Notes: generated by a model not told the origin, from the letters alone. A stretch of 44,250 nt of DNA from an uncultured Oscillospiraceae bacterium (GCA_964408655.1 CAYPAH010000001.1:1-44250); one strand, 5' to 3'. Counted from the first letter of the stretch, positions 3,100 through 24,940 are shown. Numbers and translations: made by a program.

Positions 3100-3669
3100 T
3101 TACTGATTTTCCGCAAGGCTCATATCCGGCGTTGGCAGCGCTTTTTGCGCGGGATTCGTTTCAAGCACGGTTATGCGGTTGATGAGCCAGTGTCCGTCCC
3201 GCCTTACGAATTGTATCTCGCTGCGGGTGGTGGGCCATTCGGGCAGCGCGGGGGCAAGCGTCCCCTCCGCCTGATCGCTCGGCACGGCCGAGATAGACGC
3301 GAGCTTTTCTATCACTTTGATCTCCACCGTGCTCTCCCACGGGAAGGCGATAAGGTTTTCCGCATCCACGCGGTAATCGAAGGCCGAGACAGTAAAGCCC
3401 GCATAGGCGTCCTTTTGCAGCGCCGTATCGGTCAAAAGAAAGTCGTCGGTGAAATATTCGGTCAGCTCTGTAAAATCGCTTTCGTTCAAAATGCACTCGG
3501 CGCGTTTTTCCATGCCGTCCTGCAAGATTATATAGATATTGCTGGTATAAAGCCCCGTAGTGAACACGCCCAGAACGAGGGTGACAAAAACCACTATCAA
3601 AAGCAGTATTCTAAGGATATACCAGATAGAGCGTCTTGCGACCGCGAATTTATTGCGTCCCATAAGCAT
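3100..3669 (-). CDS. Hypothetical membrane-anchored protein (single N-terminal TM)
   Basis: 189-aa ORF with a hydrophobic helix (ILRILLLIVVFVTLVLGVFTTGL) followed by a soluble domain. Tightly packed between sigH and dusB. No family recognised. Confidence 0.6.
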   Translation of the reverse strand: MLMGRNKFAVARRSIWYILRILLLIVVFVTLVLGVFTTGLYTSNIYIILQDGMEKRAECILNESDFTELTEYFTDDFLLTDTALQKDAYAGFTVSAFDYRVDAENLIAFPWESTVEIKVIEKLASISAVPSDQAEGTLAPALPEWPTTRSEIQFVRRDGHWLINRITVLETNPAQKALPTPDMSLAENQ

Positions 3670-3732: not shown

Positions 3733-4347
3733 CTATTCTTCATCCGTAAGGCTTATGCGTCCCTCCAGCTTTTTTCTGCTGCGCTGAAGCGCGTTGTCAA
3801 CGGACTTCGTGCTTCGGCCAAGGCGCTCCGCTATCTCAGTATATGAAAGATTATCGAGATAGAGCCTTAGCACCTCTCTTTCCATCGGGGAAAGCAGCTC
3901 GTCTAACAGCCTTTCTATGTCGGCGTGGCGTTCTTTGCCAAGAAAGGATTCCGCCGGATCTTCCGTGGCTATCTGCAAGATATCGAGTATCGGCCTGTCC
4001 CTGTCGGGGTCGGAGCCGCTTTTATAAAGCGAGATATAGCTGTTCAGGGGAATATGCTTTTGCCGCGTGGCGGTCTTTATAGCGGTGATTATCTGGCGGT
4101 GAACGCACATCTCCGCAAAGCTTCGAAAGCTTGCGCCGCCGGGCACATAATCGCGCACCGCTTTATAAAGGCCGATCATGCCCTCCTGCAAAAGATCGTC
4201 CCTGTCCGCGCCGATAAGATAATACGGCCTTGTTTTTCCGCGCACTATGTTCTTATAGCGTTCGTATAGCGTTTCGTCCGCGAGGGCGTCTCCGTCTTTA
4301 GAAAGAGCCGCCAGCTCCTCGTCCGTCTTATCCGTATATTCGCTCAA
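3733..4347 (-). CDS. sigH: RNA polymerase sporulation sigma factor SigH
   Basis: 204-aa ORF. Region 2 motif YYLIGADRDDLLQEGMIGLYKAVRDY and a region 4 HTH (LSYTEIAERLGRSTKSVDNALQR) match sigma-H. The position downstream of rlmB/mrnC mirrors Bacillus/Clostridium synteny. Confidence 0.9.
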   Translation of the reverse strand: MSEYTDKTDEELAALSKDGDALADETLYERYKNIVRGKTRPYYLIGADRDDLLQEGMIGLYKAVRDYVPGGASFRSFAEMCVHRQIITAIKTATRQKHIPLNSYISLYKSGSDPDRDRPILDILQIATEDPAESFLGKERHADIERLLDELLSPMEREVLRLYLDNLSYTEIAERLGRSTKSVDNALQRSRKKLEGRISLTDEE

Positions 4348-13003: not shown

Positions 13004-13150
13004 AGCTTCATTATACTTTATAGTTCCCCGCGAAACAACGCATATGCAAAAACGCAGGCTTTTCAAAAAAGTCCGGCCGGCCTTTTTGAGCCTTCCGAAT
13101 TTTGCCTGTGCCCTTTGGCCGCAGCCCTCAAAATGCGAATGGAAACAGCA

Positions 13151-13184
13151 AGCGCCCGCAGCTCATATTGAACCGCCGGGCGCT
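13151..13184. terminator. GC-rich hairpin at the distal end of the phage-like operon (possible terminator)
   Basis: 8-bp stem AGCGCCCG/CGGGCGCT with an 18-nt loop. The T-tract (TTTGTTTTGTT) lies on the plus-strand side, so orientation and function are ambiguous. Confidence 0.35.
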
Positions 13185-13204
13185 TTGTTTTGTTATATTT
13201 ATAT

Positions 13205-13501
13205 TTACTTTTTCTTTTTTATCGCCGCCGCCATGCCAAGGAGCGCCGGGAGGATCAGCAGCGCCGCCGCGCCCGCGTCTCCCGTGGCGGGAAGAGAAGC
13301 CACCGGATATACGGGTATAACGCGCACCGGCATGATAAGCGTAAGTCTTCCGCAGGAAAGACAGCCGTCAGAGCCTGCCTTTTCGCCAAGAGAACCATCG
13401 GAAAGAGCGCCGCATGAGCCGAGCGCGTTTGCCGAAGCCGCCAGAGAAAGCAGCAGGCAGGCGAGCAGCAAAAGCGCAAGCCTTCTTTTTATCTTATGCA
13501 T
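13205..13501 (-). CDS. Small secreted LPXTG cell-wall-anchored protein
   Basis: 98 aa. Signal peptide (MHKIKRRLALLLLACLLLSLAASANA), a ~45-aa Cys-containing mature segment, then LPATG plus a hydrophobic helix and a KKKK tail, which is a canonical sortase sorting signal. GGGGGAG RBS about 7 nt upstream. Confidence 0.8.
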   Translation of the reverse strand: MHKIKRRLALLLLACLLLSLAASANALGSCGALSDGSLGEKAGSDGCLSCGRLTLIMPVRVIPVYPVASLPATGDAGAAALLILPALLGMAAAIKKKK

Positions 13502-13516
13502 AAACAGCTCCCCCGC

Positions 13517-13813
13517 CTATTCCTTCTTTGCCTTGCAATATTCGCCCGTGCATTTCACGGCGTCGAAAGCGCCGTTTGAGGCAAGCGCCACGACCGCCGC
13601 GTTGATAAGCGCCAGAACCGCGCCCGCAATATCCAGCTCTCCCGAATAAAACGTTGCGCCAAGCAGAATGAGCGCCGCCACAAAATATGCGAATATCCTT
13701 GTGGGCAGCTTATCAAAAAGCGGCACCTCCTTCAAAAGCTGTGTTATAAGAGTGGTCGCGAGCACCGCGCCGGCATATGTGCCGAGTATCGGCCATGTAA
13801 AAAATTCATTCAT
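13517..13813 (-). CDS. Putative phage holin
   Basis: 98 aa with 2-3 predicted TM helices and a charged C-terminus (KAKKE). Located immediately after the XhlA-like and endolysin genes. Confidence 0.6.
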   Translation of the reverse strand: MNEFFTWPILGTYAGAVLATTLITQLLKEVPLFDKLPTRIFAYFVAALILLGATFYSGELDIAGAVLALINAAVVALASNGAFDAVKCTGEYCKAKKE

Positions 13814-13832
13814 GCCTTTTTCTCCTTTTCTT

Positions 13833-14030
13833 CTATAATCCTAGTTCAGCAAGCAGAAAACCCATTCCCGCCGCAAGCAATATCTTCAAGCTGTCCGCAA
13901 GCAGAGCCTCCCATTTTTTGCCCGCCCTGCTTTCAAGCAGCCTGAGCCGTGTTTCATGGTCGTCAAGACGCGATATGGCTATATCGAGCTTGGTTTCTAT
14001 GCGCGCAAGCGTCTCTGTCGTTCCATCCAT
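13833..14030 (-). CDS. XhlA-like lysis accessory membrane protein
   Basis: 65 aa from ATG 14030 (GAGG upstream). Coiled coil (LARIETKLDIAISRLDDHETRLRLLESR) plus a C-terminal TM, resembling PBSX XhlA. The ORF track start at 14075 would overlap the endolysin by 40 nt. Confidence 0.6.
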   Translation of the reverse strand: MDGTTETLARIETKLDIAISRLDDHETRLRLLESRAGKKWEALLADSLKILLAAGMGFLLAELGL

Positions 14031-14035
14031 ACGCT

Positions 14036-14770
14036 CTATGCCTCGAAAAAGGGCAGCCGCCCGTAACGGTTCCAATAGCTCTCAGAGCTTGCGTCAAGCT
14101 CTCTCTCCACTACGCCGTCGTCGCATCCTTTGGCCTCTATTACCCTGCCCGCGCCCATATATACGCCCACATGATAAATGCGAACGCCGTTATGCCTGAA
14201 CACAAGATCGCCTGCTTTAAGCTCGTTTCTTGATATCTGCTCGCATTTTCCGTAAAGACCGCGCGAGGAAAGGTCATATGGGATAAGCCGCTTTTCAAGC
14301 AGAAATCTCACAATGAGCCCCGAGCAGTCATAAGCCCTTATGGGCGACATGCCCTCTGAAAGCCTTCTTTCATAAAGCGCGGCCGCCCTTGCCGCATTAT
14401 ATGCCGTAGTCTCTCTTGAATATATCCAGCTCGCGCTGCTCACGCTCTCGCCTTGAGCGCCCCAGACATATATGCTGCCGAGCTGATCCTTAAGATAGCC
14501 GAGAAAGGCTTCAAGCAGATCTTCGCCTTGCTCTTCATTTTCGCCTTCGCCGTTTTTTTCAAGCTCCGCGTTGGTCAAAGGCCCCGCCATCCCGTCGATC
14601 TCAAGCCCTTTATCCGCCTGAAAAGACTTGAGGGCGGCGAGCGTTTTTTCTCCGAATATGCCGTCCGCGCCGCCCGCGTCGTAGCCGTGCGCCAAAAGCC
14701 TTTCCTGCAATACTCTCACGTCCGTTCCGTGCTGCATAGGTATCGTATATTTCAAAATTCTTTGAGCCAT
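14036..14770 (-). CDS. Endolysin: PG_binding_1 domain + NlpC/P60 endopeptidase
   Basis: 244 aa. N-terminal peptidoglycan-binding repeat (VRVLQERLLAHGYDAGGADGIFGEKTLAALKSFQ). C-terminal NlpC/P60 with catalytic Cys (YDCSGLIVRF) and His (YHVGVYMG). Confidence 0.85.
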   Translation of the reverse strand: MAQRILKYTIPMQHGTDVRVLQERLLAHGYDAGGADGIFGEKTLAALKSFQADKGLEIDGMAGPLTNAELEKNGEGENEEQGEDLLEAFLGYLKDQLGSIYVWGAQGESVSSASWIYSRETTAYNAARAAALYERRLSEGMSPIRAYDCSGLIVRFLLEKRLIPYDLSSRGLYGKCEQISRNELKAGDLVFRHNGVRIYHVGVYMGAGRVIEAKGCDDGVVERELDASSESYWNRYGRLPFFEA

Positions 14771-14794
14771 ATTTTTTCTCCCTCCGGCGCGCGC

Positions 14795-15853
14795 TTAGTC
14801 CACGCCGTATTTTCTTTTAAGCCCGGCGTAGCCGCTCTCGCCAAGCACGGATTTGATATAAGCAATGCTCGGCGCGTCGTTCAGCATCACCCGCCGCTCT
14901 CTTTCGGTCATCCCGGCAAAAAGCGAATATATCTTTTCGCCCGCCTCATTGCCGCTTGAAACGCTCTTTGAGCTTTTTGACGAGCTTGCGCCTTTGCTCG
15001 CGGACGAGCTTTTTTTAAGCGCATATTCACGTTCCCAGTTTTCCTGCTCGCGCGCGTTCTGCGCTTCTTTATAGGCAAGCTCCCGCTCATATCTTGCCGC
15101 CTCCTGCTCCGCTTCATATCGGGCAAGCGCGGCCTCCCGCTCGTCGCGGTACTGCCTGTAGTAAAATTCCCTCTCCGCGTTCGCGTCTTCTATTTCGTCG
15201 CGGTAACGCCCGTAGCCGGCCTCGTCAAGCTCGCTGTAAGCGGCAAGCTCTTTATAAAGGGAATCCTCCTCGCTCTTATATTTATCATATGCGCCCTCGG
15301 CAAGATCGGGCACCTTGTCCGCAAGCGCGCGCATATATGCCTGATAGCTTTGCTGCCCCACGCCCTGCGCATATGACGAGCCGTAGCCGCCCGTGAGCGC
15401 GGCCGCGCTGCCCATGCTGTCCTGCATGGCAAGCTTTCCGCCCTGAATATAGCTTTCCTTATAATTATCATAGAGAGGATCTTCGCTGTAATCATATGAA
15501 AAAGGCTCGCGCTCTTCTATTGCGTTCATAAGCGTTTCGAGCTTGTCGCTGTAGGCGCTTTTATATTCCCTGGCGGGCTTTATGCTCTGCATCTGCTTTG
15601 CAATGGCAAGCGTCGCGTCCTCGCCGAAGGGCGCGCCGTAGTCCGCCCTTGCGCCCCAGTCGGGCTTTTTCCCCGCTGCGCTCTCCGTCCGCGTGATCCC
15701 TGCGCTTTGCACCTCGGGCAGTTCGAGAGTGGCGCCCGCGTATATCCTGTTTATGTTTTTTATGCCGTTGCGCTTTGCAAGCTCGTCAACGCTTGATTTA
15801 TAGCGTTTGGCGAGGGAGCTTAGCGTATCGCCCCTTTGAATCGTATATTTCAT
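14795..15853 (-). CDS. LysM-domain protein with E/R/Y-rich coiled-coil and Ser-rich tract
   Basis: 352 aa. N-terminal LysM (YTIQRGDTLSSLAKRY...INRIYAGATLELP), a central repetitive YRDE/ERE/AAR region, a poly-Ser/Lys tract and a conserved-looking C-terminus. Function unknown. Confidence 0.7.
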   Translation of the reverse strand: MKYTIQRGDTLSSLAKRYKSSVDELAKRNGIKNINRIYAGATLELPEVQSAGITRTESAAGKKPDWGARADYGAPFGEDATLAIAKQMQSIKPAREYKSAYSDKLETLMNAIEEREPFSYDYSEDPLYDNYKESYIQGGKLAMQDSMGSAAALTGGYGSSYAQGVGQQSYQAYMRALADKVPDLAEGAYDKYKSEEDSLYKELAAYSELDEAGYGRYRDEIEDANAEREFYYRQYRDEREAALARYEAEQEAARYERELAYKEAQNAREQENWEREYALKKSSSASKGASSSKSSKSVSSGNEAGEKIYSLFAGMTERERRVMLNDAPSIAYIKSVLGESGYAGLKRKYGVD

Positions 15854-15869
15854 AGCCTTTCAAGCTCCT

Positions 15870-16832
15870 TTATGTGTTTACGGTGGTGAAGTCGAAATAA
15901 CTGCGGCTTTTGTCGTCGTTGCTCTGCCTTATCCAGAAAGCGCCCGTGTCCGCGCCCGTCCATATGGCTGCCGCCGCGTCATAGCTGTATTTTTTATTGC
16001 AATAAGCCCAGAGGTATCCCCCCGCGTCCGTGCTCGTCGTTGTGTAGCCATATACCTCGCCGGATGAGCATGTTCCAAGCGTGCTCGAGCCCGTGTTCGG
16101 ATATGCGCGCTTGTTCAGCCCCTCGCCCTGCGACCTTATGCGCAAAACGTTCGTCGCGCTGCTCTGTGGCACGCTGCCGGGAGTGGAAATGACGAGCTGC
16201 CCGTTGCTTATCGCCATATCGAAAAGGCAGAGGCGTCCCGTGTCGGATATGCCGAGAAAATAAGCGCCCGACGAGCCTGAGGGCTGGCCGTAGACATAAT
16301 CGAGATTGTCGGCGTTCACAAGCAGTCCCGCCGCCCTTTTGTCCGAGAGCGTTATGCCGCCCACCTGCAGGGTGGCCGCTCCCGCGAGATTTCCCGCCGC
16401 GTCCACCGAAAAGCCGCCGAAGGAGCCGGCCGTAGCCTCCATGCTGCCGTCGGTATTTATCCTAAAGCCGTCGTTGGCGGTGACTACGCCCTCGAGCGAT
16501 ATCCTCTCCGCCTGTATCTTCACTTCCTCGGCGCTTTGATTTATCTCGCTGATTATTTCGCCCTTTTGCACCTTTAGCGAGATGCTTTCGTTGCTTTTTT
16601 CTATGGCCGAGCGGCATTCTTCAAGCCCCGTTATCGCGTCCCCGCTTTTTTGAACGCTAGCGCTTATGCTCTCGTTAAGCTTCACGCCGAGATTGTTTTC
16701 GTCCAGATGGCTGAGAGTGTATGAAAGCTGCTCCGTTAAAACATACATATAGTCTCTCAGCTTTTTTATCTCTCTCGCGCTGCTCAGATCGCTCTTTTCA
16801 AGCTCCGGCAGTTCTATATTAAGCTGCGGCAT
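15870..16832 (-). CDS. Putative tail fibre / receptor-binding protein
   Basis: 320 aa. N-terminal coiled coil, then a segment (ISLKVQKGEIISEINQSAEEVKIQAERISLEG) resembling motifs in Gram-positive phage tail or minor structural proteins. The C-terminal ~90 aa look SH3b-like. Function is inference. Confidence 0.5.
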   Translation of the reverse strand: MPQLNIELPELEKSDLSSAREIKKLRDYMYVLTEQLSYTLSHLDENNLGVKLNESISASVQKSGDAITGLEECRSAIEKSNESISLKVQKGEIISEINQSAEEVKIQAERISLEGVVTANDGFRINTDGSMEATAGSFGGFSVDAAGNLAGAATLQVGGITLSDKRAAGLLVNADNLDYVYGQPSGSSGAYFLGISDTGRLCLFDMAISNGQLVISTPGSVPQSSATNVLRIRSQGEGLNKRAYPNTGSSTLGTCSSGEVYGYTTTSTDAGGYLWAYCNKKYSYDAAAAIWTGADTGAFWIRQSNDDKSRSYFDFTTVNT

Positions 16833-16833
16833 A

Positions 16834-18513
16834 TTATTCTCCCGCCTCCTCGCTTACAAAACTCAGCCCGTGCAGCGCGGCCTCGCCCTCGCCCTCAACG
16901 CGAAGGCGAAGGGAATCGCAGCGGCGCAGTCTCAGCGGCACGAGCACAGGCCGCTTTCGCGTGACCTTTATGCTTCCGGCACTCGAGAACGCGCCGCCGT
17001 CAAAGCTGAGCATAAGGCGAAGCTGCGCTCCCGCCTCCGCCCAAAGACGGATAATAAGCTTTTGCGGACGCTGATATCCCGCGTCGATAAGCTCGCCCGT
17101 TTCAAAATACCAGCTCAGCTTTCCCTCAGCCGTCCCTTCGGAAGCATCAAGAGAAAAGAGCGCGCCGTCGTCTCTTAGCATGTATCCGCTGCCGCCAAGG
17201 CTTACTATAGCCTTAGCCCTGCTCTCATCCTCCCTGTGCCAAAGGGCGCAGCGGCTGTCGTAAACGAAAAGATGCGTCTCTCCGTTTTCGTCCTCGGCGC
17301 TTAGATAATATTTATCCTCAACGGCGCCGCCCACCGCGTTTTTGAGCCTTTCGCCAAGATCTTCGCCTATAAGCTCCGGCATAGAGCCACCATAGGCGCA
17401 CACTCCCGCGCGCGCATGGTAATAAAGCAGGCCGCCCATTTCACAAAGGCTTTTTTCCGATCCGCGGCACAGCCCGTAGCAGGGGGTGGTGACAAGCTGA
17501 TAATTTTCCGGCCGCGTCCCCATCAGCTTCATAAGCCTGTCCTCTTTAAAAAAGAGAACGTTGTTGCCATAGGCGCAGCAGCCGCTGAAGCTGCCTCCGC
17601 CGCCGGTAGAGAGGGTATAGCTGTCGGTGCTTATGCCCATATAACAGTTCCAGTTGCCCGGGTCGCCAAGCTTGCAGCAGGCTATCTCGTTTCTTTCGCT
17701 GCTGCATCCCCAAACGCGGTTGTCCTTTTCGCAGATAAAGTCAAAATCGGGGATTTCCCGGGAAATATGAAGCTCCGCGCTCTGCGTGAAGGCTTCGTCC
17801 AGCGTGCCCGCGATAAGAAGATAGTCCTCGCCCGCCGCGTAAACAACGGCGCTGCCGTTTATGGCCTGCGCTTCGGCTCCGCTTATCTCTATCCCGTCAT
17901 ATTCTGAAAAGTCCGCCCCTATGCCAGCGTTCGATATTTTTATATATGCCGCGCTCAAGCTTATCCACATGCCCGAAAGCGAGGAATAGCGCTTTAATAC
18001 ATTGGGAGTCTGCGCGGTGTCGAGCCACAGCGCCCCACCCGAGGGGTCCTCCGGCGGCATATCCGAAACGGCATAGCTTTGGTATTCCTCGCCCTGAAGG
18101 TTGCACATGGAAAAGCTCACCGTTCCCTCGCTTGCGAACTCCGCCCCCAGCGCTGAAAGAGTGCCGTCTTCGGTGTTGAAGCTAAGCTTATCCGGCCAGA
18201 TGAGTATTTTAGCGCCCGATCTCACAAAGCTCTTTTCCGTGTCGCTGACGCTGCCCACGCATTCCCCGTCGTAAAAAAGCTGAGTTCCATCGGCCCAGCA
18301 AAGCTTTTCGCCCGCGAAAAGGCCGTTTGGTTTTTCAAGCACAGCCGCTCTTCCCCGCTTTTTTCGCGTGGAGAGAAGCGGAAAACGATCGGCCGAAAGA
18401 TTTTTCATTTCATAAAAACGATCCGCGCCCGCACGGTGATCGTGACGGTAGCCGCCAAAGGCGCTTATGGAACGCTTTATGCGTTTTGTCGATACAAGTG
18501 GAGGTAATTTCAT
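16834..18513 (-). CDS. Large phage structural protein (possible tail hub/nozzle)
   Basis: 559 aa, the largest structural ORF after the capsid gene, with repetitive beta-rich sequence. Role assigned only from position in a P22/T7-like gene order. Confidence 0.45.
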   Translation of the reverse strand: MKLPPLVSTKRIKRSISAFGGYRHDHRAGADRFYEMKNLSADRFPLLSTRKKRGRAAVLEKPNGLFAGEKLCWADGTQLFYDGECVGSVSDTEKSFVRSGAKILIWPDKLSFNTEDGTLSALGAEFASEGTVSFSMCNLQGEEYQSYAVSDMPPEDPSGGALWLDTAQTPNVLKRYSSLSGMWISLSAAYIKISNAGIGADFSEYDGIEISGAEAQAINGSAVVYAAGEDYLLIAGTLDEAFTQSAELHISREIPDFDFICEKDNRVWGCSSERNEIACCKLGDPGNWNCYMGISTDSYTLSTGGGGSFSGCCAYGNNVLFFKEDRLMKLMGTRPENYQLVTTPCYGLCRGSEKSLCEMGGLLYYHARAGVCAYGGSMPELIGEDLGERLKNAVGGAVEDKYYLSAEDENGETHLFVYDSRCALWHREDESRAKAIVSLGGSGYMLRDDGALFSLDASEGTAEGKLSWYFETGELIDAGYQRPQKLIIRLWAEAGAQLRLMLSFDGGAFSSAGSIKVTRKRPVLVPLRLRRCDSLRLRVEGEGEAALHGLSFVSEEAGE

Positions 18514-18531
18514 ATGAGCCTCCTCGTTTTT

Positions 18532-18888
18532 TTACTGGTGTACCCCGCGCCCCTTCAGGGGCATGTTCCTTCTGTTATAATCGGCGGCAAAGGCGGAAAA
18601 TGCCGAGTTGAAGCGCAGCATGGCGTTCGTATATCTTTCGAACTCCCCGTCATGCATGTGTATCATCGCCGCAAGATAGTCGGCATAAAGCCCCGTATAG
18701 GGCGCGGAGGCAAGCAGCTCGCTCTCATTTGAATATCCCCGCGGCTCCTCCGGCGCGTTTTCATGCCACATGAGCAGCTCGCGGTATATCATGCCGTCCA
18801 GCTCAAGAAGCCATCTGAGCTTCAGCTCCGCCTCATATACATTAGGCAAAAGCGCGTCGGTCAGCGCTATGGCCTCAAGCGCTTTCAT
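18532..18888 (-). CDS. Phage protein, possible head-tail adaptor
   Basis: 118 aa, helical. Its start overlaps the stop of the preceding gene by 1 nt (18888). Function is guessed from position only. Confidence 0.4.
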   Translation of the reverse strand: MKALEAIALTDALLPNVYEAELKLRWLLELDGMIYRELLMWHENAPEEPRGYSNESELLASAPYTGLYADYLAAMIHMHDGEFERYTNAMLRFNSAFSAFAADYNRRNMPLKGRGVHQ

Positions 18889-19172
18889 CAGGCGAACCTC
18901 GCTTCCCCGCTCAAGCGGGAAACAAGCCTTGCGGCCTTTTCATCCTGCTTTTCGGAAGCCTTTATCACCTGCGCTATAGCATAGGGCATCTCTACCTCTA
19001 CGCCGCGCTGAATGTGAAACCTTCTGCCGTTCACGCTGGCAAAAACATCGCCCTTATATTTGCCGTTATCCTTGAAAAGCTTCATCGTCACCGTTTCCGC
19101 GCGTCCCGCGCGAAGCGCGGCCACCATTTCAAGATAAGCCTGCTCGGGACTGAGCTCATTCTGCTTTGTCAT
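18888..19172 (-). CDS. Phage protein of unknown function (downstream of capsid gene)
   Basis: 94-aa ORF, 68 nt after the capsid gene stop. No family recognised. Confidence 0.5.
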   Translation of the reverse strand: MTKQNELSPEQAYLEMVAALRAGRAETVTMKLFKDNGKYKGDVFASVNGRRFHIQRGVEVEMPYAIAQVIKASEKQDEKAARLVSRLSGEARFA

Positions 19173-19240
19173 ATATATTCGCTCCTTTTTTCATTTTTCG
19201 GATATCGCGAAGGGGAAAGCTTCCCCTTCGCCTTTTTTTA

Positions 19241-20527
19241 TCAGTTGGCGATGGCCGTAGCGGAATATGAGCAGCCGCTTTCAACGCGCACCATATACTC
19301 TTCCACAAGCCGCTCGCTGCACTTGCTTGCCTTCCAGCCAACGGTGCTGCGCTGGTCAAGAGGATCGGCCGTGCCCGAGCTGCCCTGCTGCTTGATGATA
19401 GTGGTGAGCCCGCCGCCGCTGAGCTCGGTCTTGCCATAGGCGTTCGCGCCGAGCATAAGGCTTACGAAGACGGCGCTGCCGTCCGCGCCCGCGCCGCCGC
19501 CGCATATCACCGCGTCCGCGCTCACGCTCTTTACAGCCGCGCTTACCGTCAAACTTGCGCTGCCCGCGCTGCCTGCGGTGACGGAACTGAGCGTCGCCTG
19601 CTTGCCGCCCACATAAATAGCCGCGCCATCGCCGATCGCGGCGTTTGCGGCCTCCGCCTCCGCGGCGCTTATAGCCTCTTTGACGGCGATCGTGGTAGAG
19701 CCGCTTGAATCAAGCGCGGTCTTTAAGGTAAGGCGGCACTTGCCCGGCACTATGTCGGCGGGAGCGATGATCTTAGCCTCGGTGGTCTCAACGAAGCGAA
19801 CTCCGCCAAGCTTGCCGATCTCGCCGCGATAAATGTTATCGGGATGATATTTATGCAGCTCTATCCACTCTTCGCTGCGCATCAGGTCATATGCCACATA
19901 AGGATGCACGATGCAAACAAAGCTGTCGTCAACGGGCTTTGCGTTCATCGCCTTTAGCTGAGCCGCCGCGCGGAAGACCATATCGGGGCTGAGCTTGCAG
20001 TTTGCGCCTATCTCGCTGCGGTCGGTGACCTCGCTTTCGGTATTTCCGCTGACATAGGGAGCGTACATTACCTGAGTGCCGCCGCAGAGCACCTCGCGGG
20101 TGATGGTGTCGAGCGTTCGTCCTGCCTGACTTGCGAGTATCTTGGTGCTCTGCTCTACCACGGGATCGATGCTGGTAAGGTCGAGCATGTCGCTAAGCTC
20201 AACAAAATCGCCGTATTGATCGACAGAAGCCGTGACGCTTTCAACGTTGAGCTTGTTGCCCGCGGGGGTAACGCCCTCGGTAATGGGAGTAAGCGCCTTG
20301 CCAAGCGGAGAGAACTTGCGAAACTCTATGCTTTTTCCGCCATGCGGAGGAATGGGATAGCAGTCTCCGAACTGATCGTGAACAAGATCGGGCTCGGCAT
20401 AATCGATCAGCCTTTTTTCATAATAGGTCTTGGCCTCTGCCTCGGTGCTGTTGCCTTCCGCGCTCATTCCGGTGGTCTGGGTGGCTGCAAAAAGCTGAAG
20501 ATCTATCTTATCGTTGTTTTCCTTCAT
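19241..20527 (-). CDS. Major capsid protein (HK97 fold; resembles N4-gp56/TIGR04387-type)
   Basis: 428 aa. N-terminal pattern YYEKRLIDYAEPDLVHDQFGDCYPIPPHGGKSIEFRKFSPL...LTPITEGVTP recalls the N4-gp56 capsid family (from memory). Lies directly after the scaffold gene. Contains an Ala/Gly/Ser-rich insertion around aa 270-350. Confidence 0.8.
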   Translation of the reverse strand: MKENNDKIDLQLFAATQTTGMSAEGNSTEAEAKTYYEKRLIDYAEPDLVHDQFGDCYPIPPHGGKSIEFRKFSPLGKALTPITEGVTPAGNKLNVESVTASVDQYGDFVELSDMLDLTSIDPVVEQSTKILASQAGRTLDTITREVLCGGTQVMYAPYVSGNTESEVTDRSEIGANCKLSPDMVFRAAAQLKAMNAKPVDDSFVCIVHPYVAYDLMRSEEWIELHKYHPDNIYRGEIGKLGGVRFVETTEAKIIAPADIVPGKCRLTLKTALDSSGSTTIAVKEAISAAEAEAANAAIGDGAAIYVGGKQATLSSVTAGSAGSASLTVSAAVKSVSADAVICGGGAGADGSAVFVSLMLGANAYGKTELSGGGLTTIIKQQGSSGTADPLDQRSTVGWKASKCSERLVEEYMVRVESGCSYSATAIAN

Positions 20528-20549
20528 TGCATGTTTCCTTTCTTTACGC

Positions 20550-20999
20550 TTAAATATTGATGCTGTGTTTCTTGCCCTTTAGCGCCTCGCGCCCAATGCG
20601 CTCGCGCTCTTCGCGGCTCCATTCGCTGGGCGTTTTTTCGCGTATGGTGGCTGCCGCGCGTCCGCCAGTGCCGTTTTCGGCGGGACGCGAGCCTCGCGTT
20701 TCAATATCTCTTAGCACCCGCTCGCGCACTCCCTGCGCCACCTCGTTGATAAGCTTTCCCGTGAGCTCGTCCCTGTGGGCAAACTCATAGGCCGATCTCA
20801 TGTCTATGCCCGCGCGCATCAGCTTTGCGAAAAGAGGGTCTTTCATCTCGTTTTTCAGCTCGAATCCGGCGTAAACGCCCTTGAGACGCGCCTCCTCTTC
20901 TTTTATCGCCGCCGCCCGCAGCTCCAGCGCGCTGCCGCTGCCGTCAGGCGCTTTGCCCTCGCCCGTCTCTATGGCTTTTGCCGTTTTCTTTTCGTTCAT
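20550..20999 (-). CDS. Putative scaffolding protein
   Basis: 149 aa from ATG 20999 (AAGGAGAAGG RBS). Charged, helical, and immediately upstream of the capsid gene. No separate prohead protease gene is present. Confidence 0.6.
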   Translation of the reverse strand: MNEKKTAKAIETGEGKAPDGSGSALELRAAAIKEEEARLKGVYAGFELKNEMKDPLFAKLMRAGIDMRSAYEFAHRDELTGKLINEVAQGVRERVLRDIETRGSRPAENGTGGRAAATIREKTPSEWSREERERIGREALKGKKHSINI

Positions 21000-21042
21000 A
21001 CTGGCCTTCTCCTTTTTCCAAAATAGCTTTCGCATCTTTTCC

Positions 21043-21357
21043 TCAGCTTTCTACCGATATCGAATCGGGGTAACGCTCGGCCAAAAGGCTCATCCCGCTC
21101 GTCACGGTGTCCACCGCCGCCGAAAGATAATCCTCATAGCCGCCTGCCGCCTCCGCGTCGATAGAAAGATAGTCCTCGTCGCTGCAAATGCGGCAGCTTC
21201 TTAGACAGCCGTTTTGCAGCTTTTCATCCATCACCGAAAGCAGCATTTCGGACATGAGCTTTACATATTGCTCTTCCTCGGCGCCCGTTTCTCCCGCTTC
21301 GCTGGTCATGGTGATGATATATCTGTCATAACAGCGGTCAACTACATAATTCGTCAT
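21043..21357 (-). CDS. Acidic phage protein of unknown function
   Basis: 104-aa ORF whose start overlaps the portal stop by 4 nt. No family recognised. Confidence 0.5.
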   Translation of the reverse strand: MTNYVVDRCYDRYIITMTSEAGETGAEEEQYVKLMSEMLLSVMDEKLQNGCLRSCRICSDEDYLSIDAEAAGGYEDYLSAAVDTVTSGMSLLAERYPDSISVES

Positions 21358-23114
21358 TGCATTTTCACCTCCGCGCCCTCACGGGCTTTTTGTGTGGCTC
21401 CGCCCCGCATGGCGGAATAAATGGCTTCGTCGCGTCCCTTCGGGGCGCTCTTTTCGCTTCCTTCAAGGGCGGGCAGCAGCGTTTCGGCTTTTTTAAGCAG
21501 CTCCGCGTTTTCCTTAAGCGCTCTAAGCGCCTGCTCCTTGCCCTCAAACTCCATAAGCTCCATAGCCTGCACGGCCTGCTTTACGCGCGCGGGGTCGAAA
21601 AGGCCGAGCTTATAAAGATTCATCGCAAATTCGTTTTGCGAAATGCGGCTGTATGCGCCCGCCTTCGCCGCCTTCACACGCACATCGAACACCGGCTCGC
21701 GATAGGTAAGCAGTCCCGCCGTGTTTTCTTCATGCAGTCGGATATCCGCGTTCGTATAGCTGGTGAATTCCTCCGCGCCATTTTTGCCCGTTATGCGGAA
21801 ACAGCGCGGGCTGTCGTAAAACTGCCTTATCAGCTCGATTATCAAATAACAGACCCGCGCATAGGCACGGTAAGCCCCCTTTATCATGTCGCGGGAAAGC
21901 TTGCTGCCCGCCTCCTGCAGGGCGGCTATTGCCGAGGCCGCCGTGACCCCGCTCGCGGCTCCGCCCTGATTGAAGTCGCGGTTACCGCTGGTCTCTTTAA
22001 GCTCTTCTATCTTGTTGTTGAGTATTGAAATATATATGTCCGGAAGCGTTCTTACCTCGACCTGCGAAAGATTGTCGCGCGGGTTCCCGCTGCCGTGATA
22101 GTGAACGAAGTCGCGGCTCCAGTCGGCATACTCCTCTTCGTTTATGCTTCCGTCTCCCCTTACGAACCAGCGCGGCCTCGCGGCCATCAGCGCGTTTTTG
22201 AGTATCGCCTGATTCAAAAGGTCTATCTGCATCTGCGGACTTTTGCAAATATCCACATATCCATATCCCACGGGCGAGCCCTCCTCGGGAAACAGAGTGT
22301 CGAACACGAAGGGATATCTGGCGTGGTCATAAAAGCCCCTCTCGCGCATTTCGGGCAGATTTTCCGTGGCATAGAGCACCTCGCCGCAGGCAAGCTTAGC
22401 ATATTGCAGCACCGTGCGCGTTCCGCGTTTTTGCTTATAATACCAGTCGACCACGGGTATCTTGCCGCTTATGTCTATCGTGTCGTCATAAACATACTGC
22501 GTTACATCCACAGTTCTTCCGCCAAGCTGAAGCTCTGGAAAACGCGCGCGCAGATATTCCGCGTCCACAAGCTCCACAGAGAAAAAGTTGGCGGAGGACT
22601 GTATATCCCTTACTCCCGGCTCCCAAAAGAGATTGAGAAGATCAAGCTGGCGAATATCTATCTCGCCAAGGCCGTTGTTCTTTTCCGGATTCCAGAATAC
22701 TCCCGTGATGCCCGTGCCGTTTTTGAGCTTGTACCACCACATGTCACTGTAAGCCTGCTCATAATCGTTCTGCTCGAGCAAAACGGGCAATATGCTTCCA
22801 AGAGCTTCGGCGGCGGCGCTGTCGTTCTGCTCGCGCGGCAGCACCAGGGGCTCGGGATAATGATCCATTGCGTCGGCGTGCTTTCCGGCTATGCAGTTTT
22901 GCAGCCATGCCGAGGCCGGCTCCGCCTCCCTTTCGCCCTTGCCGCGTATCTGCTCCCAGTGTCTCAGACGCCACCAGCCCTCGTTGGCGACTATCCGCTT
23001 TTCAAGGCCGGCCTTGCCCGCCTTGTACTTTTTGAGTATTTCGAGCGCCTCCGCCGCCTGCTCCCGTCCTATCGGCCTTTTGCCCGCTTGTTCACTTTGC
23101 TCCATGCTCTTCAT
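21354..23114 (-). CDS. Portal protein
   Basis: 586 aa, 13 nt downstream of the terminase gene. Size and position are typical of portals. No search was done. Confidence 0.75.
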   Translation of the reverse strand: MKSMEQSEQAGKRPIGREQAAEALEILKKYKAGKAGLEKRIVANEGWWRLRHWEQIRGKGEREAEPASAWLQNCIAGKHADAMDHYPEPLVLPREQNDSAAAEALGSILPVLLEQNDYEQAYSDMWWYKLKNGTGITGVFWNPEKNNGLGEIDIRQLDLLNLFWEPGVRDIQSSANFFSVELVDAEYLRARFPELQLGGRTVDVTQYVYDDTIDISGKIPVVDWYYKQKRGTRTVLQYAKLACGEVLYATENLPEMRERGFYDHARYPFVFDTLFPEEGSPVGYGYVDICKSPQMQIDLLNQAILKNALMAARPRWFVRGDGSINEEEYADWSRDFVHYHGSGNPRDNLSQVEVRTLPDIYISILNNKIEELKETSGNRDFNQGGAASGVTAASAIAALQEAGSKLSRDMIKGAYRAYARVCYLIIELIRQFYDSPRCFRITGKNGAEEFTSYTNADIRLHEENTAGLLTYREPVFDVRVKAAKAGAYSRISQNEFAMNLYKLGLFDPARVKQAVQAMELMEFEGKEQALRALKENAELLKKAETLLPALEGSEKSAPKGRDEAIYSAMRGGATQKAREGAEVKMQ

Positions 23115-23127
23115 CCTTTCTGCGTAT

Positions 23128-24480
23128 TTATATATCCAGTGCCGCGCATATTCCCGCCTTCGCCGGCGCGCCGCAGCGCGGGGCGATAGGTCTTGCCATG
23201 CAAAGATAGCGCAGCTCGTCCGCTATGTGATCCTCGCCCGTCGTGTCAAGATCCTCCGGATCGGTCTTTGAAAATACCAGCGTGGGCAGCGTGCGTATAA
23301 AGCCCGCGCAGCTTGAAAAGCAATAAAGCATCGGAATGCCGTTTTCGTCGAAGGCGAGGCGATAATGCACCTGCATCCAGCCGGGTATGCGCGAGTTGTC
23401 GCCCCTGTCAAAATAAACTCCGCAGGCGGCGGCCTCATCCGCTATCGATATCCCGCGGCTCGCGTCCCATATCGAAGGATCGGCCACGCCGATCACGCGC
23501 TTTCCTTTCAGATAGGGATGCTCTTTTTCCAGGCGGGCGATCTCCCTGAATATCTTATCCGGCGGCCATTTCAGCCCCGTGTTCGGGCTTTCCGTGCAGC
23601 CGTAAAGCTCAAGTATCCTATAGATCCGGCCGTCGTAATCCACCGCCCACCACGCGCATGAAAAGGGACGGGCATAGCCAAAGTCGAAGCTTCTGTATAT
23701 CTGCCACGCAGAGGGCGGCTCAAAGGGAGCTATCACATGCGTCCACTGCCTGTCGCGGTAATGCTCGGGAGCGTCGGTGAATTCAGCAAAAAACTGTCCC
23801 TCAAAAACGTCCCAGTCGCCATAGCGGTGCGCCCGCCTCAGCTTTTCGGGCAGGGCGTCCAAAACCGCCACATAGCCCGGGTCATATTTTAAAAGGAATT
23901 CGTTATCGTCCACCGTGGCCGGAATAAAGGCATAGTCCTGAGCGGCCTCGCCGGGCGTGAACCTTCTTTTTACAAATAAACGGCGGAACCATTCATGCTT
24001 CACTCCGCCGGGGTTGCCCGTAAAATACATACGGGCTGAAAAATCGGGGCGGACGCTTCTGTTGCAGGTCATAAGAAACTGCACCTGCGTCCATGTGAAA
24101 TGCGTGCATTCCTCAATGCCGATAACGTCGTATTCCTGCCCCTGATATTGAAAAACGTCCGTTTCGCTCTCGCAATAGCCAAGGCGTATGCGGCTTTGGT
24201 TGGCAAAGCGAAAGGCTTTTTCCGTGCTGTTATAAACAGCCGCGCCGCCAAGTATTTTTTGCAGCGGCAAAAGATGGTTTTCTCTAAGCTCCGGCAGCGT
24301 GCGGCGCAGCAGCAGAAGGTTGAGTCTAGGATAGCGCAAAGCCAGGAGGACGAGCTTCGTTCGCATAGCCCAGCTCTTTCCGCCGCCGCGCGCCCCGCCG
24401 TAGCCGATATAGCGGGCGCGGCTTTCAAAAAACCGCGCCTGCTTTGGATTGGGTGATCCAAGGGAAATAACACTTACCAT
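23128..24480 (-). CDS. Terminase large subunit
   Basis: 450 aa. Walker A (GYGGARGGGKS), Walker B (YDVIGIEE) and C-terminal RNaseH-like nuclease acidic residues (SFDFGY; GEDHIADELRY). Confidence 0.92.
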   Translation of the reverse strand: MVSVISLGSPNPKQARFFESRARYIGYGGARGGGKSWAMRTKLVLLALRYPRLNLLLLRRTLPELRENHLLPLQKILGGAAVYNSTEKAFRFANQSRIRLGYCESETDVFQYQGQEYDVIGIEECTHFTWTQVQFLMTCNRSVRPDFSARMYFTGNPGGVKHEWFRRLFVKRRFTPGEAAQDYAFIPATVDDNEFLLKYDPGYVAVLDALPEKLRRAHRYGDWDVFEGQFFAEFTDAPEHYRDRQWTHVIAPFEPPSAWQIYRSFDFGYARPFSCAWWAVDYDGRIYRILELYGCTESPNTGLKWPPDKIFREIARLEKEHPYLKGKRVIGVADPSIWDASRGISIADEAAACGVYFDRGDNSRIPGWMQVHYRLAFDENGIPMLYCFSSCAGFIRTLPTLVFSKTDPEDLDTTGEDHIADELRYLCMARPIAPRCGAPAKAGICAALDI

Positions 24481-24540
24481 AAAGAAGAACCTCGCTAGAA
24501 CTTACGTTCTTTGCGTATATTACCATAGAACAAAAGTTTT

Positions 24541-24563
24541 GTGGTACAGAAAATGGTACTCTG
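24541..24563. repeat. Copy A of a 23-nt motif (GTGGTACAGAAAATGGTACTCTG) upstream of the terminase gene
   Basis: 18/23 identical to copy B, including an identical 14-nt core AAAATGGTACTCTG. Contains GGTAC twice, 11 nt apart. Confidence 0.7.
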
Positions 24564-24581
24564 TGAAATATATTATTTGTT

Positions 24582-24854
24582 CTATTCGCTCCAGTCCTTC
24601 CCCCTCTCGTCGGAAAATATCACCATCAGCTCATTAGCGCTCTCGCACTCTCTAAGCTCCTTTATCTGCTGCAATACCGACACCACCTCTTTAAGCGGCT
24701 TCGGGTCGGGTTTTCCCCCATTCTCCTTGCCTTTTTCCTCTATCAGCTCGCTCTCGATATACTCGAAAAGCCTTGCTCCGGGCTTTAACGAGCGCGATAA
24801 AAGCTGTTCCATCTCGGAAAAAGCGTCCTCATTTTTCGGTTTTTTCGTCTCCAT
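24582..24854 (-). CDS. Small acidic protein in the small-terminase position (function unknown)
   Basis: 90 aa from ATG 24854, which is preceded by AAGGAGAGGGAG. The ORF track start at 24881 lacks an RBS. No HTH or TerS motif recognised. Confidence 0.6.
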   Translation of the reverse strand: METKKPKNEDAFSEMEQLLSRSLKPGARLFEYIESELIEEKGKENGGKPDPKPLKEVVSVLQQIKELRECESANELMVIFSDERGKDWSE

Positions 24855-24917
24855 ATCTCCCTCTCCTTTCGCGTGAACCATTGTTCTGTTAACAGCATAT
24901 ACTCTTTTGTTTTTTTC

Positions 24918-24940
24918 GTGGGGACAAAAATGGTACTCTG
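24918..24940. repeat. Copy B of the 23-nt motif (GTGGGGACAAAAATGGTACTCTG) in the divergent control region
   Basis: Same orientation as copy A and 377 nt away. Lies upstream of the small acidic ORF and overlaps a possible minus-strand -35 (TTGTCC). Confidence 0.7.

Follow-up and report, generated by a model that had tools for sequence, protein, structure and literature searches.

A podovirus-derived chromosomal operon of an uncultured Oscillospiraceae bacterium as a probable gene transfer agent-type viriform related to FpGTA

Introduction

PBSX of Bacillus subtilis is an SOS-inducible defective-phage particle with a lysis set of the XhlA/holin/lysin type. It is of the myovirus type, about 28 kb in size, and has a sheath, a tube, a tape measure and its own Xre repressor. 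Gene transfer agents (GTAs) of the RcGTA type are siphovirus-type particles with a head that depends on an HK97 protease, control by CtrA and GafA, and lysis and accessory genes at other loci. Podovirus-like GTAs were, to our knowledge, first reported in 2024-2026, for Faecalibacterium only. Here we describe a 15-gene module in a 44,250-nt stretch of DNA from an uncultured Oscillospiraceae bacterium (GCA_964408655.1, CAYPAH010000001.1:1-44250), the whole of which we call the window. The module is probably a GTA-type element related to that of Faecalibacterium.

FpGTA is the podovirus-like GTA of Faecalibacterium prausnitzii (Borodovich et al., bioRxiv 2024.11.15.623857; Nat Commun 2026, PMC12946183). 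Its operon I (10.5 kb) encodes a TerS-like protein lacking a DNA-binding domain, TerL, the portal, a protein named 'Prp', an N4-gp56 capsid protein, a nozzle (8eap) and a protein named 'TolA', and its operon II (5.5 kb) encodes fibres, a receptor-binding protein, the holin and the endolysin (PMC12946183). The particles are about 40 nm in size and contain 8.4-8.9 kb of seemingly random host DNA, and delivery of the packaged DNA to recipients is unproven for FpGTA itself (PMC12946183). The same authors reported GTA-like packaging of 4.6-8.9-kb DNA in Oscillospiraceae and Christensenellaceae, and a Faecalibacterium metagenome-assembled genome was the only one in which their targeted search turned up a candidate locus (PMC12946183).

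Relation of the module to FpGTA

The module consists of 15 open reading frames (ORFs) of one direction, on the minus strand at positions 13205-24881, and takes up 11,677 bp of the window. The spacing between the genes ranges from a 4-nt overlap at the tightest to 101 nt at the widest. In the order of transcription, the genes encode a small TerS-like protein (g01), TerL, the portal, a Prp-protease homologue (g04), a scaffolding protein, the major capsid protein, two small conserved proteins (g07 and g08), a tail nozzle (g09), a tail fibre (g10), a LysM protein (g11), an endolysin, an XhlA-like protein, a holin-like protein and a small sortase-anchored protein (g15). A first-pass annotation of the window had described 15 intact, tightly coupled, co-directional ORFs in this order, which we confirmed. 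Its assignments of TerL, portal, scaffold, capsid protein, LysM protein and NlpC/P60 endolysin agree with the PHROG and Pfam matches obtained when we scanned the module proteins against Pfam, PHROG and NCBIfam.

We consider it likely that a gut podovirus left this locus behind as a remnant that is now fixed in the chromosome and under host control, and that would build a short-tailed particle and lyse the cell. It would thus be a viriform of the GTA type that is related to FpGTA and arose by a separate reduction. The GTA label is an inference by homology and evolutionary signature.

The short tail, also proposed by the first-pass annotation, was identified through g09 (559 aa, 16834-18513, minus strand). 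Structure prediction was needed for this protein because its sequence search against the PDB was empty. The AlphaFold model (mean predicted local distance difference test score, pLDDT, 91.7) had as its best Foldseek matches the PhiM1 nozzle (8vbx, E 4e-15), P22 gp10 (8eap_D, E 6e-15, template-modeling (TM) score 0.54/0.63) and T7 gp12. The GP4 and Sf6 nozzles were also matched, and overall the E values were about 1e-13 to 1e-15 with TM scores of 0.5-0.63. The model thus matches podovirus nozzles, and therefore the short-tailed reading is right. The FpGTA authors matched their nozzle counterpart to 8eap as well (PMC12946183).

For the comparison with FpGTA we used a very abundant host-flanked locus (L097-L105; related loci are given L numbers throughout) that is also present on the virome scaffold MT836159. 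Its ten ORFs of 94, 477, 577, 317 (Prp), 339, 70, 127, 623, 67 and 421 aa fit the description of FpGTA operon I and the numbering RCH50853-50844 gene for gene, and we refer to it as the FpGTA-type locus. In phmmer searches, ten window proteins collinearly covered nine of these ten ORFs. TerL (E 2e-113), the portal (1e-180) and the capsid protein (1e-115) matched their counterparts. The Prp-like protein (2e-5, to the Prp domain) and the scaffold (2e-15, to the C-terminal part) both matched the fused 317-aa ORF. Further matches were those of the 94-aa g07 to the 70-aa protein (2e-20), the 118-aa g08 to the 127-aa protein (1e-12), the nozzle to the 623-aa protein (2e-88), the N-terminus of the fibre to the 67-aa protein (3e-8), and residues 86-223 of the LysM protein to the 421-aa protein (3e-23). 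Between g01 and the 94-aa FpGTA-type protein there was no direct pairwise match in phmmer.

Both loci are podovirus-derived, chromosomal and devoid of replication and integration genes. They have in common the order of an HTH-less (helix-turn-helix-less) TerS-like protein, TerL, portal, Prp-related protein and scaffold, capsid protein, two small proteins, nozzle, anchor and coiled-coil protein, and their capsid proteins are in the same NCBIfam family (TIGR04387). The first-pass annotation had called a short-tailed Firmicutes element of about 12 kb unusual. Such an element is not without precedent, since FpGTA fills this slot (PMC12946183). Its GTA-like reading is largely supported by homology, intactness and selection, but the kind of element is no longer an unknown one.

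The two loci also differ. FpGTA is divided into two operons 125 kb apart, whereas the window has a single operon in which the fibre, lysin, XhlA-like and holin genes follow the head and nozzle genes. The window capsid protein is 428 aa long with an insertion domain, and the FpGTA-type one is 339 aa long without it. The Prp homologue of the window is separate from the scaffold and appears dead, whereas the FpGTA-type Prp is fused with the scaffold and has its catalytic dyad. LexA boxes are present at the window promoters, and none were found upstream of the FpGTA-type locus. Relative to FpGTA, four things seem to be new: the separate lineage with its single operon, the direct wiring to LexA, the combination of a dead Prp homologue with an L27-like capsid leader, and the family's breadth beyond Faecalibacterium.

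The phage family and its reduced loci

The capsid family of the module has more than 7,900 members and occurs in at least 547 places in species-representative genomes. The best 80 of these at least 547 loci are almost all in Clostridia (Christensenellaceae, Oscillospiraceae, Acutalibacteraceae and Ruminococcaceae). Genes in the related loci were called from homology-anchored ORFs and precomputed calls. Contigs of 40-45 kb have the same core order together with a longer portal, a Prp-family protease, and Rep and nuclease genes. They encode a 144-258-aa protein 5' of TerL, with an N-terminal HTH in most, and a giant polyvalent protein (MuF_C, ART-PolyVal; 2685-4296 aa in complete examples). The giant protein comes directly after the LysM-protein homologue (L013:15185-21332, L015:14974-19818, L002:13404-21461), and such proteins are probably injected.

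The 41-45-kb gut podoviruses (uncultured; L013, L015 and IMG/VR contigs) share with the window the core virion order and the long capsid form with the insertion domain. The proteins of phage L013 match those of the window strongly (TerL E 2e-156, capsid 5e-157, nozzle 3e-125). What sets these phages apart from the window is that their TerS-like protein has an HTH, their portals are longer and their Prp looks active, and that they encode the giant protein and replication or nuclease genes. The most distant cultured relatives are the Bacillus megaterium phages Page, Pony and Palmer and the Paenibacillus phage API480.

The reduced loci have lost features of these phages in a recurrent way. The giant protein is absent from all of them. 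The median portal length is 669 aa in the giant-protein phages versus 557 aa in the reduced loci (p = 3e-4), and the window portal is shorter at both ends than in the related 41-kb phages. The TerS-like g01 (90-99 aa) has no HTH and lies directly 5' of TerL, in the same place as in the FpGTA-type locus. A profile of g01-type proteins of 73-116 aa aligned to columns 69-121 of a 170-column profile of HTH-bearing TerS-like proteins (hhalign probability 84%, E 7e-6). The latter profile was built from the 137-197-aa proteins 5' of TerL in four giant-protein phage loci and L073. The short proteins thus probably correspond to the part of the phage TerS-like proteins that follows the HTH. The HTH-less short TerS-like protein, the shorter portal and the missing giant protein together are a 'reduction syndrome' of the reduced loci. 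No integrase gene is present in the annotated flanks of the window, L005, L187, L011 and L097.

Thirty species-representative loci had full flanks. Three of them bear the giant protein, 13 are compact (TerL and portal, no giant protein), two are of other types, and 12 are split, with a scaffold-capsid-nozzle-LysM block that has no TerL or portal within 10 kb. The split loci could have a multi-locus layout like that of FpGTA operons I and II, or could reflect partial loss. Loci of the split type are L018 (Yeguia hominis NSJ-40), L006, L024, L028, L030, L044, L059, L074, L080, L082, L085, L087 and L088.

A neighbor-joining tree, a distance method, was built from TerL, portal, capsid and nozzle proteins (1,847 columns, 100 bootstraps). 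The window, L005 and L187 formed a clade with 100% support. Its sister clade (94%) contained the giant-protein phages L013, L015, L078 and L062, the FpGTA-type locus and other reduced loci, so the window and the FpGTA-type locus are set apart by nodes of 94% and 100% that include giant-protein phages. Descent of both from one domestication is not what this four-protein tree shows. The simplest reading would be several independent reductions of one phage family, with the window clade apparently an event separate from FpGTA.

In L008 (1-21245 of a 320-kb contig), genes for FUR, a short-chain dehydrogenase, a flavin reductase and an acetyltransferase are interspersed in a copy of the module. The portal and nozzle genes of this copy are displaced upstream, and it looks eroding or rearranged. 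In L003 (MT835662.1, 1-12000), which came from human faeces and was filed as 'Bacteriophage sp.', a reduced module is joined to PduL, SpoIIM, M23/G5 peptidase and C1 peptidase genes. Reduced elements with host flanks are thus being deposited as phages.

Chromosomal setting and conservation

We inspected the rest of the 44-kb contig by a Pfam scan of its larger non-overlapping ORFs. The remaining sizeable ORFs are housekeeping genes, which flank the module over 13 kb on one side and 19 kb on the other. They encode LysRS, GreA, Dus, a sigma factor, SpoU, ThyX, an amidase, TsaD, a NUDIX protein, LCP, two S26 signal peptidases, an M24 peptidase, DapF, an RluD-type protein, serine dehydratase, an EPSP-synthase-family protein and ThiT. 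Neither an integrase, a recombinase, a repressor nor a replication gene was found among these larger ORFs, and no module protein matched a tape-measure or sheath family, in agreement with the absences listed in the first-pass annotation. No tRNA was found on the contig. A search of the module's surroundings and of the virome scaffold L001 for attachment (att) repeats, terminal repeats and tRNA targets gave only short chance repeats, and no att-type direct repeats flank the module. None of the hallmarks of an intact temperate prophage, namely an integrase or recombinase, a repressor switch, replication genes and att sites, was thus found on the contig. On this one contig, phage-derived particle genes lie in the chromosome without replication, integration or lysogeny genes of their own, as in a viriform.

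Alternatively, the module could hold the late genes of an intact prophage, with the early genes located elsewhere in the genome or separated from it in the assembly. Such a split would fit a single 44-kb contig, and 12 of the 30 related full-flank loci are indeed split. However, housekeeping genes occupy both sides of the module for 13 and 19 kb, and the boundaries are the same in L005 and L187. The giant protein and the HTH-bearing TerS are missing inside the module and not just at its edges. We regard a split prophage as extremely unlikely.

The nearest relatives by capsid identity are L005 (85%) and L187 and L004 (about 78-79%), so that the window clade is sampled by three to four genomes. 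L005 has the same arrangement as the window (VWA-AAA, 15 genes, LCP). L187 has all 15 genes beside a beta-lactamase gene, as in L004, and its S26-S26-DUF951-M24 block, which in both loci is a few kb distant, lies on the opposite side of the module from that in the window. The chromosomal neighborhood is thus conserved, with local rearrangement. None of the 15 genes is disrupted in the window, L005 or L187, and the L004 contig, which covers ten of them, has these ten intact as well. Between the window and L005, the synonymous divergence (dS) is about 0.9-2.9, near saturation, and the ratio of nonsynonymous to synonymous divergence (dN/dS) is 0.10-0.42 across all 15 genes. The flanking host genes are as diverged between the two as the module is (amino acid identity of 66% for LCP, 76% for AAA and 60% for VWA).

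The GC content at third codon positions is 0.647 in the module and 0.630 in the host genes (Mann-Whitney p = 0.38). The relative synonymous codon usage of the module correlates with that of the host genes at r = 0.963, compared with 0.979 for a control of one half of the host genes against the other. The codon usage of the module is fully host-like, that is, ameliorated. The match of third-position GC to the flanking genes, which the first-pass annotation had noted by eye, is thereby borne out numerically. The cross-genome comparison that it proposed yielded a conserved neighborhood and synteny and a dN/dS below 1 for every gene in the window-L005 pair. Long vertical inheritance, purifying selection and host-like composition, as expected of a viriform, are all present. 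These data support a locus that is kept intact by selection and is not a freshly decayed prophage, as the annotation had argued.

A related alternative is a non-functional cryptic prophage remnant, a late half that persists by chance. The gene set equals the late module of the related 41-45-kb phages, and eroded or rearranged copies such as L008 exist in other genomes. Chance persistence is, however, difficult to reconcile with 15 of 15 ORFs intact in three genomes that are nearly saturated at synonymous sites, with window-L005 dN/dS values well below 1, with fully ameliorated codon usage, or with conserved promoter and operator sequences. A close phage relative is also missing: the nearest phage-like relative has 65% capsid identity among the 120 best matches of a 5.8-billion-protein search, and the best capsid match in IMG/VR has 53%. 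A cryptic remnant is strongly disfavored and very improbable.

A self-transmitting minimal element or helper-dependent satellite is a further alternative. Here the particle would preferentially package the 11.7-kb locus itself, perhaps together with adjoining DNA, and the locus would re-enter a chromosome by homologous recombination or with help from a 41-kb phage in the same cell. In favor of this are the long, phage-like capsid protein and the existence of virome scaffolds of about 11-12 kb with such modules (MT836159, MT836218, MT836150). Related reduced modules also sit in chromosomal contexts that differ per lineage. Against this, integrase, replication gene, att repeat and terminal repeat were not found, the TerS-like protein has no recognizable DNA-binding domain, the neighborhood is constant across the clade, and the virome scaffolds have host flanks and not defined ends. 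We judge this alternative to be quite unlikely.

The divergent AAA_5/VWA pair next to the module was considered as a part of the element and rejected. Eighty metagenomic loci have the pair (63-71% identity) without an adjoining module gene, except L162, and L187 has the module without the pair. In L162 (81-3799 of a 3.8-kb metagenome contig), AAA_5-VWA is followed by a portal-like ORF on the same strand, 56% identical to the window portal. No other locus examined had this arrangement.

Promoters and LexA boxes

Two putative promoters precede the first two genes of the module, both on the minus strand. Promoter 1, 5' of g01 (24896-24937), has the motif AGTACC-N6-GTCCCCAC (24937-24918), a spacing of 16 nt and a -10-like TATATG (24901-24896). 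Promoter 2, 5' of TerL (24517-24560), has AGTACC-N7-GTACCAC (24560-24541), 18 nt and a -10-like TAATAT (24522-24517). A predicted LexA operator (Cheo box) follows each: box 1 (GAACAATGGTTC, 24875-24886) lies 9 nt downstream of the first -10 element, and box 2 (GAACGTAAGTTC, 24498-24509) lies 7 nt downstream of the second and 17 nt upstream of the TerL ATG. The common plan is AGTACC-N6/7-GT(A/C)CC(C)AC, 16-18 nt, a -10-like hexamer, 7-9 nt, GAAC-N4-GTTC, a ribosome-binding site (RBS) and ATG.

In Bacillus and clostridia, LexA has the operator sequence GAAC-N4-GTTC (PMC4234289). Exact copies occur twice in the 44,250-bp window, where 0.36 are expected, and both are at the module promoters. L187 also has exactly two exact copies at equivalent positions (box 2 at 3901-3912), and L005 has one exact copy (box 2, 3260-3271) and one with a single mismatch (box 1), again at equivalent positions. 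Two exact, conserved LexA-box sequences at both promoters suggest control by a host regulator, although LexA boxes are known in bona fide prophages too. The module is apparently switched on through the host LexA, which would bind these boxes.

The element AGTACC-N6/7-GT(A/C)CC(C)AC lies at about -35 of both promoters (24918-24937 and 24541-24560) and not elsewhere in the window. The promoter-1 motif is almost unchanged in L005 despite the saturated synonymous sites. The promoter-2 pattern, which occurs once in the window with none expected, is kept in L005 and reads CGTACC-N7-GGTATC in L187. This GTAC-N8-GTAC element suggests a site for an additional activator or an alternative sigma factor. 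It is confined to the window clade, and we therefore rejected it as a signal of the whole family.

LexA boxes were likewise considered and dismissed as a universal mark of reduced loci, since none were found upstream of the FpGTA-type and L011-type loci. The L011 module is reduced, measures 14 kb on a 187-kb contig, and has a divergent HTH_3 and Peptidase_S24 (CI/LexA-like) repressor gene directly 5' of it (L011:4637-5239), a control solution other than that of the window. LexA-box-like sequences (GAACATGAGTTT twice; GAACAAATGTTC) are found 5' of the packaging genes at L020:2301 and 2683, L036:5144, L045:5166 and L050:693, which belong to other reduced lineages (Christensenellaceae, Acutalibacteraceae). 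SOS wiring may thus have arisen more than once in the family. With LexA boxes in some reduced lineages and a repressor gene in L011, the wiring is lineage-specific.

Proposed mechanism and competing views

We infer a mechanism, from LexA binding, Prp cleavage and non-specific packaging to capsid size and DNA delivery, that starts with the host LexA on the two Cheo boxes just past the -10 elements of the g01 and TerL promoters. DNA damage would remove LexA and turn both promoters on, presumably in a fraction of the cells, and an activator on the GTAC element would possibly add to the induction. The scaffold and the N4-gp56-type capsid protein would then assemble on the portal, and host Prp would remove the 13-residue capsid leader ending in LQLF↓A (the arrow marks the cleavage point). 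TerL and the HTH-less TerS-like protein may carry out headful packaging without sequence specificity. The missing DNA-binding domain of the TerS-like protein is an indirect hint at such random packaging, and the TerS of RcGTA-type GTAs also has no specific DNA binding (cited in PMC12946183). The 94-aa and 118-aa connector proteins, nozzle, fibre and LysM protein would complete the particle, and the XhlA-like protein, the holin and the NlpC/P60 endolysin would lyse the cell and release it.

SOS-type control combined with a lysis cassette recalls the logic of colicins, pyocins and PBSX, and PBSX also has a comparable lysis set of XhlA-like protein, holin and lysin. The locus could accordingly be a domesticated weapon or release device, in which SOS lysis frees either particles that kill or bind competitors or the cell contents, with any DNA incidental. 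The FpGTA authors also left this possibility open (PMC12946183), and the LysM and cell-wall-binding-like domains among the virion proteins point to strong wall binding. A pure killer would nevertheless not need the full packaging set of TerS-like protein, TerL and portal, which is under purifying selection (dN/dS 0.11-0.35), and purified FpGTA particles hold about 9 kb of DNA (PMC12946183). We consider a weapon or release device unlikely and retain the GTA-type viriform as the preferred interpretation.

Several points weigh against the viriform interpretation. One contig was scanned, and an integrase or early region may lie elsewhere in the genome. LexA boxes are also present in true prophages and bacteriocin operons, and therefore SOS control is no proof of domestication. 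The L097-L105 locus was equated with FpGTA operon I by architecture, annotation names, gene count and length and not by accession. The module proteins are closer to those of the 41-kb phage L013 than to the FpGTA-type locus. The window capsid protein also keeps the insertion of about 85 aa of the 41-kb phages, which the 339-aa FpGTA-type capsid protein lacks, and therefore a small capsid is not to be assumed.

Like the window, PBSX is a particle locus in a Firmicute chromosome with an XhlA/holin/lysin-type lysis set, but its structural genes are not homologous. GTAs of the RcGTA type likewise have a vertically inherited head-tail cluster, host regulators and a TerS without specific DNA binding, and their proteins are unrelated to those of the module.

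The locus shows the FpGTA phage family reduced, selected and host-wired in another lineage of Clostridia, apparently by a separate reduction. More tentatively, a family of 41-45-kb podoviruses may have been repeatedly and independently reduced to host-controlled operons for particle and lysis across Christensenellales and Oscillospirales (at least 547 loci), with the window lineage as a LexA-wired, single-operon and host-Prp-dependent case, and the family may be the source of the 4.6-8.9-kb packaging noted above; we put forward this wider proposal as a possibility with less than even confidence. The two LexA operators predict induction by DNA damage, and the reduction syndrome could serve to distinguish viriforms from prophages when gut genomes are surveyed. 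Should hundreds of species have active elements of this kind, much of the bacterial DNA recovered in gut viromes, and much of the gene flow among gut Clostridia, could originate from them.

Packaging and head genes

All features described from here on are on the minus strand. The first gene, g01 (24582-24854), encodes 90 aa from an RBS-preceded ATG at 24854. The listed ORF start (ATG 24881) is probably too far upstream, and the orthologues in the related L loci have 85-89 aa. The protein gave no match in Pfam, PHROG or NCBIfam. It is 58% identical to its L005 orthologue, with a dN/dS of 0.35. TerL (450 aa, 23128-24480) matches phrog_979 (E 2e-45) and Terminase_3 (E 4e-12), has a visible Walker A motif GGARGGGKS, and is 81% identical to its L005 counterpart (dN/dS 0.13). 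The portal (586 aa, 21354-23114) is of the P22/SU10 type, with matches to phrog_156 (E 3e-75) and P22_portal PF16510 (E 3e-28).

The Prp-protease homologue g04 (104 aa, 21043-21357) was recognized by its phmmer match to the FpGTA-type Prp domain. L011, L013, L015 and the FpGTA-type locus keep the His/Cys dyad in the motif GHA...D(I/V)VC, whereas the window, L005 and L187 have other residues there. Judged by this alignment, g04 has lost the Prp catalytic His/Cys and is predicted to be catalytically dead. The first-pass annotation saw no prohead protease in the module. This is true in function only, because the 104-aa protein is a Prp homologue that has lost its catalytic residues.

The scaffolding protein (161 aa, 20550-21035) matches phrog_13908 (E 6e-23), and its true start may be an internal ATG. 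It is homologous to a co-positioned 287-aa phage protein (E 8e-19), and its position suggests the scaffolding role.

The major capsid protein (428 aa, 19241-20527) belongs to the N4-gp56 family (TIGR04387, 261 bits; phrog_1357, E 3e-77) and contains an insertion domain of about 85 aa at residues about 254-335. Like the nozzle, it gave no match in PDB sequence searches. Its AlphaFold model has a pLDDT of 65, and all Foldseek matches are HK97-fold capsid proteins, with the Sf6/P22 coat on top and TM scores of 0.2-0.3. We take no more from this low-confidence model than that the protein is an HK97-fold capsid protein.

The N-terminus of the capsid protein reads (I/M)(D/N)LQLF↓A-TQTT, is kept across the window clade and has the form IDLQLF↓A in the window. 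This leader resembles the leader of ribosomal protein L27. Cleavage at F↓A follows the Prp-type rule, and the 80alpha capsid protein loses 13 residues (PMC5744158). In the two 41-kb phages examined, where the Prp dyad is intact, the capsid protein reads ...F↓D-NTQTT. Host Prp would trim the leader in the window because the element's own Prp homologue has no catalytic residues, and capsid maturation may thus now depend on the host ribosomal protease Prp. Between the capsid gene and g07, a perfect 11-bp stem-loop (19207-19231) without a U-tract after it on the coding strand may act as an mRNA stabilizer or as an attenuator that sets the capsid protein dosage.

Tail, lysis and terminal genes

The conserved virion-module protein g07 (94 aa, 18888-19172) matches phrog_15239 (E 2e-20) and has a dN/dS of 0.18. 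The conserved 118-aa protein g08 (18532-18888) matches phrog_12105 (E 2e-28) and is, on position alone, a candidate portal-nozzle adaptor.

The tail fibre g10 (320 aa, 15870-16832) has PHROG matches to fibre and minor-head coiled-coil segments and a weak Gp58 match. The protein begins with an N-terminal anchor of about 60 aa that is conserved and continues with a coiled-coil segment. Its C-terminal domain varies and is weakly similar to the cell-wall-binding domains of lysins (E 0.004-0.025). The LysM and coiled-coil virion protein g11 (352 aa, 14795-15853; LysM E 1e-13) would be the counterpart of the 'TolA' protein RCH50844. The latter is the third most abundant protein of purified FpGTA particles (PMC12946183).

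The endolysin (244 aa, 14036-14770) contains PG_binding_1 (E 4e-16) and NlpC/P60 (E 4e-13) domains, and its catalytic motifs DCSG and HVGVY are visible in the sequence. The XhlA-like lysis accessory protein (13833-14030) has 65 aa from the ATG at 14030. Its listed start (TTG 14075) is probably too far upstream, and the L005, L004 and L187 orthologues have 65 aa. The holin-like protein (98 aa, 13517-13813) is encoded close to the lysin and has, by eye, three hydrophobic segments and a charged C-terminus. The XhlA and holin names of the first-pass annotation can be kept with caution: the XhlA-like match to phrog_937 is weak (E 8.5e-5), and the holin call comes from the hydrophobic segments and a single weak PHROG match, to a family of unknown function.

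The last gene, g15 (13205-13501), encodes a small sortase-anchored protein in which a signal peptide, LPATG, a hydrophobic stretch and KKKK were recognized by eye. Its mature part is about 40 aa. It evolves fast (31-46% identity, dN/dS 0.42), and its position is kept in all four members of the clade (the window, L005, L004 and L187). Past this gene, a hairpin at 13150-13185 (AAGCGCCCG...CGGGCGCTT) resembles a terminator and may end the operon transcript.

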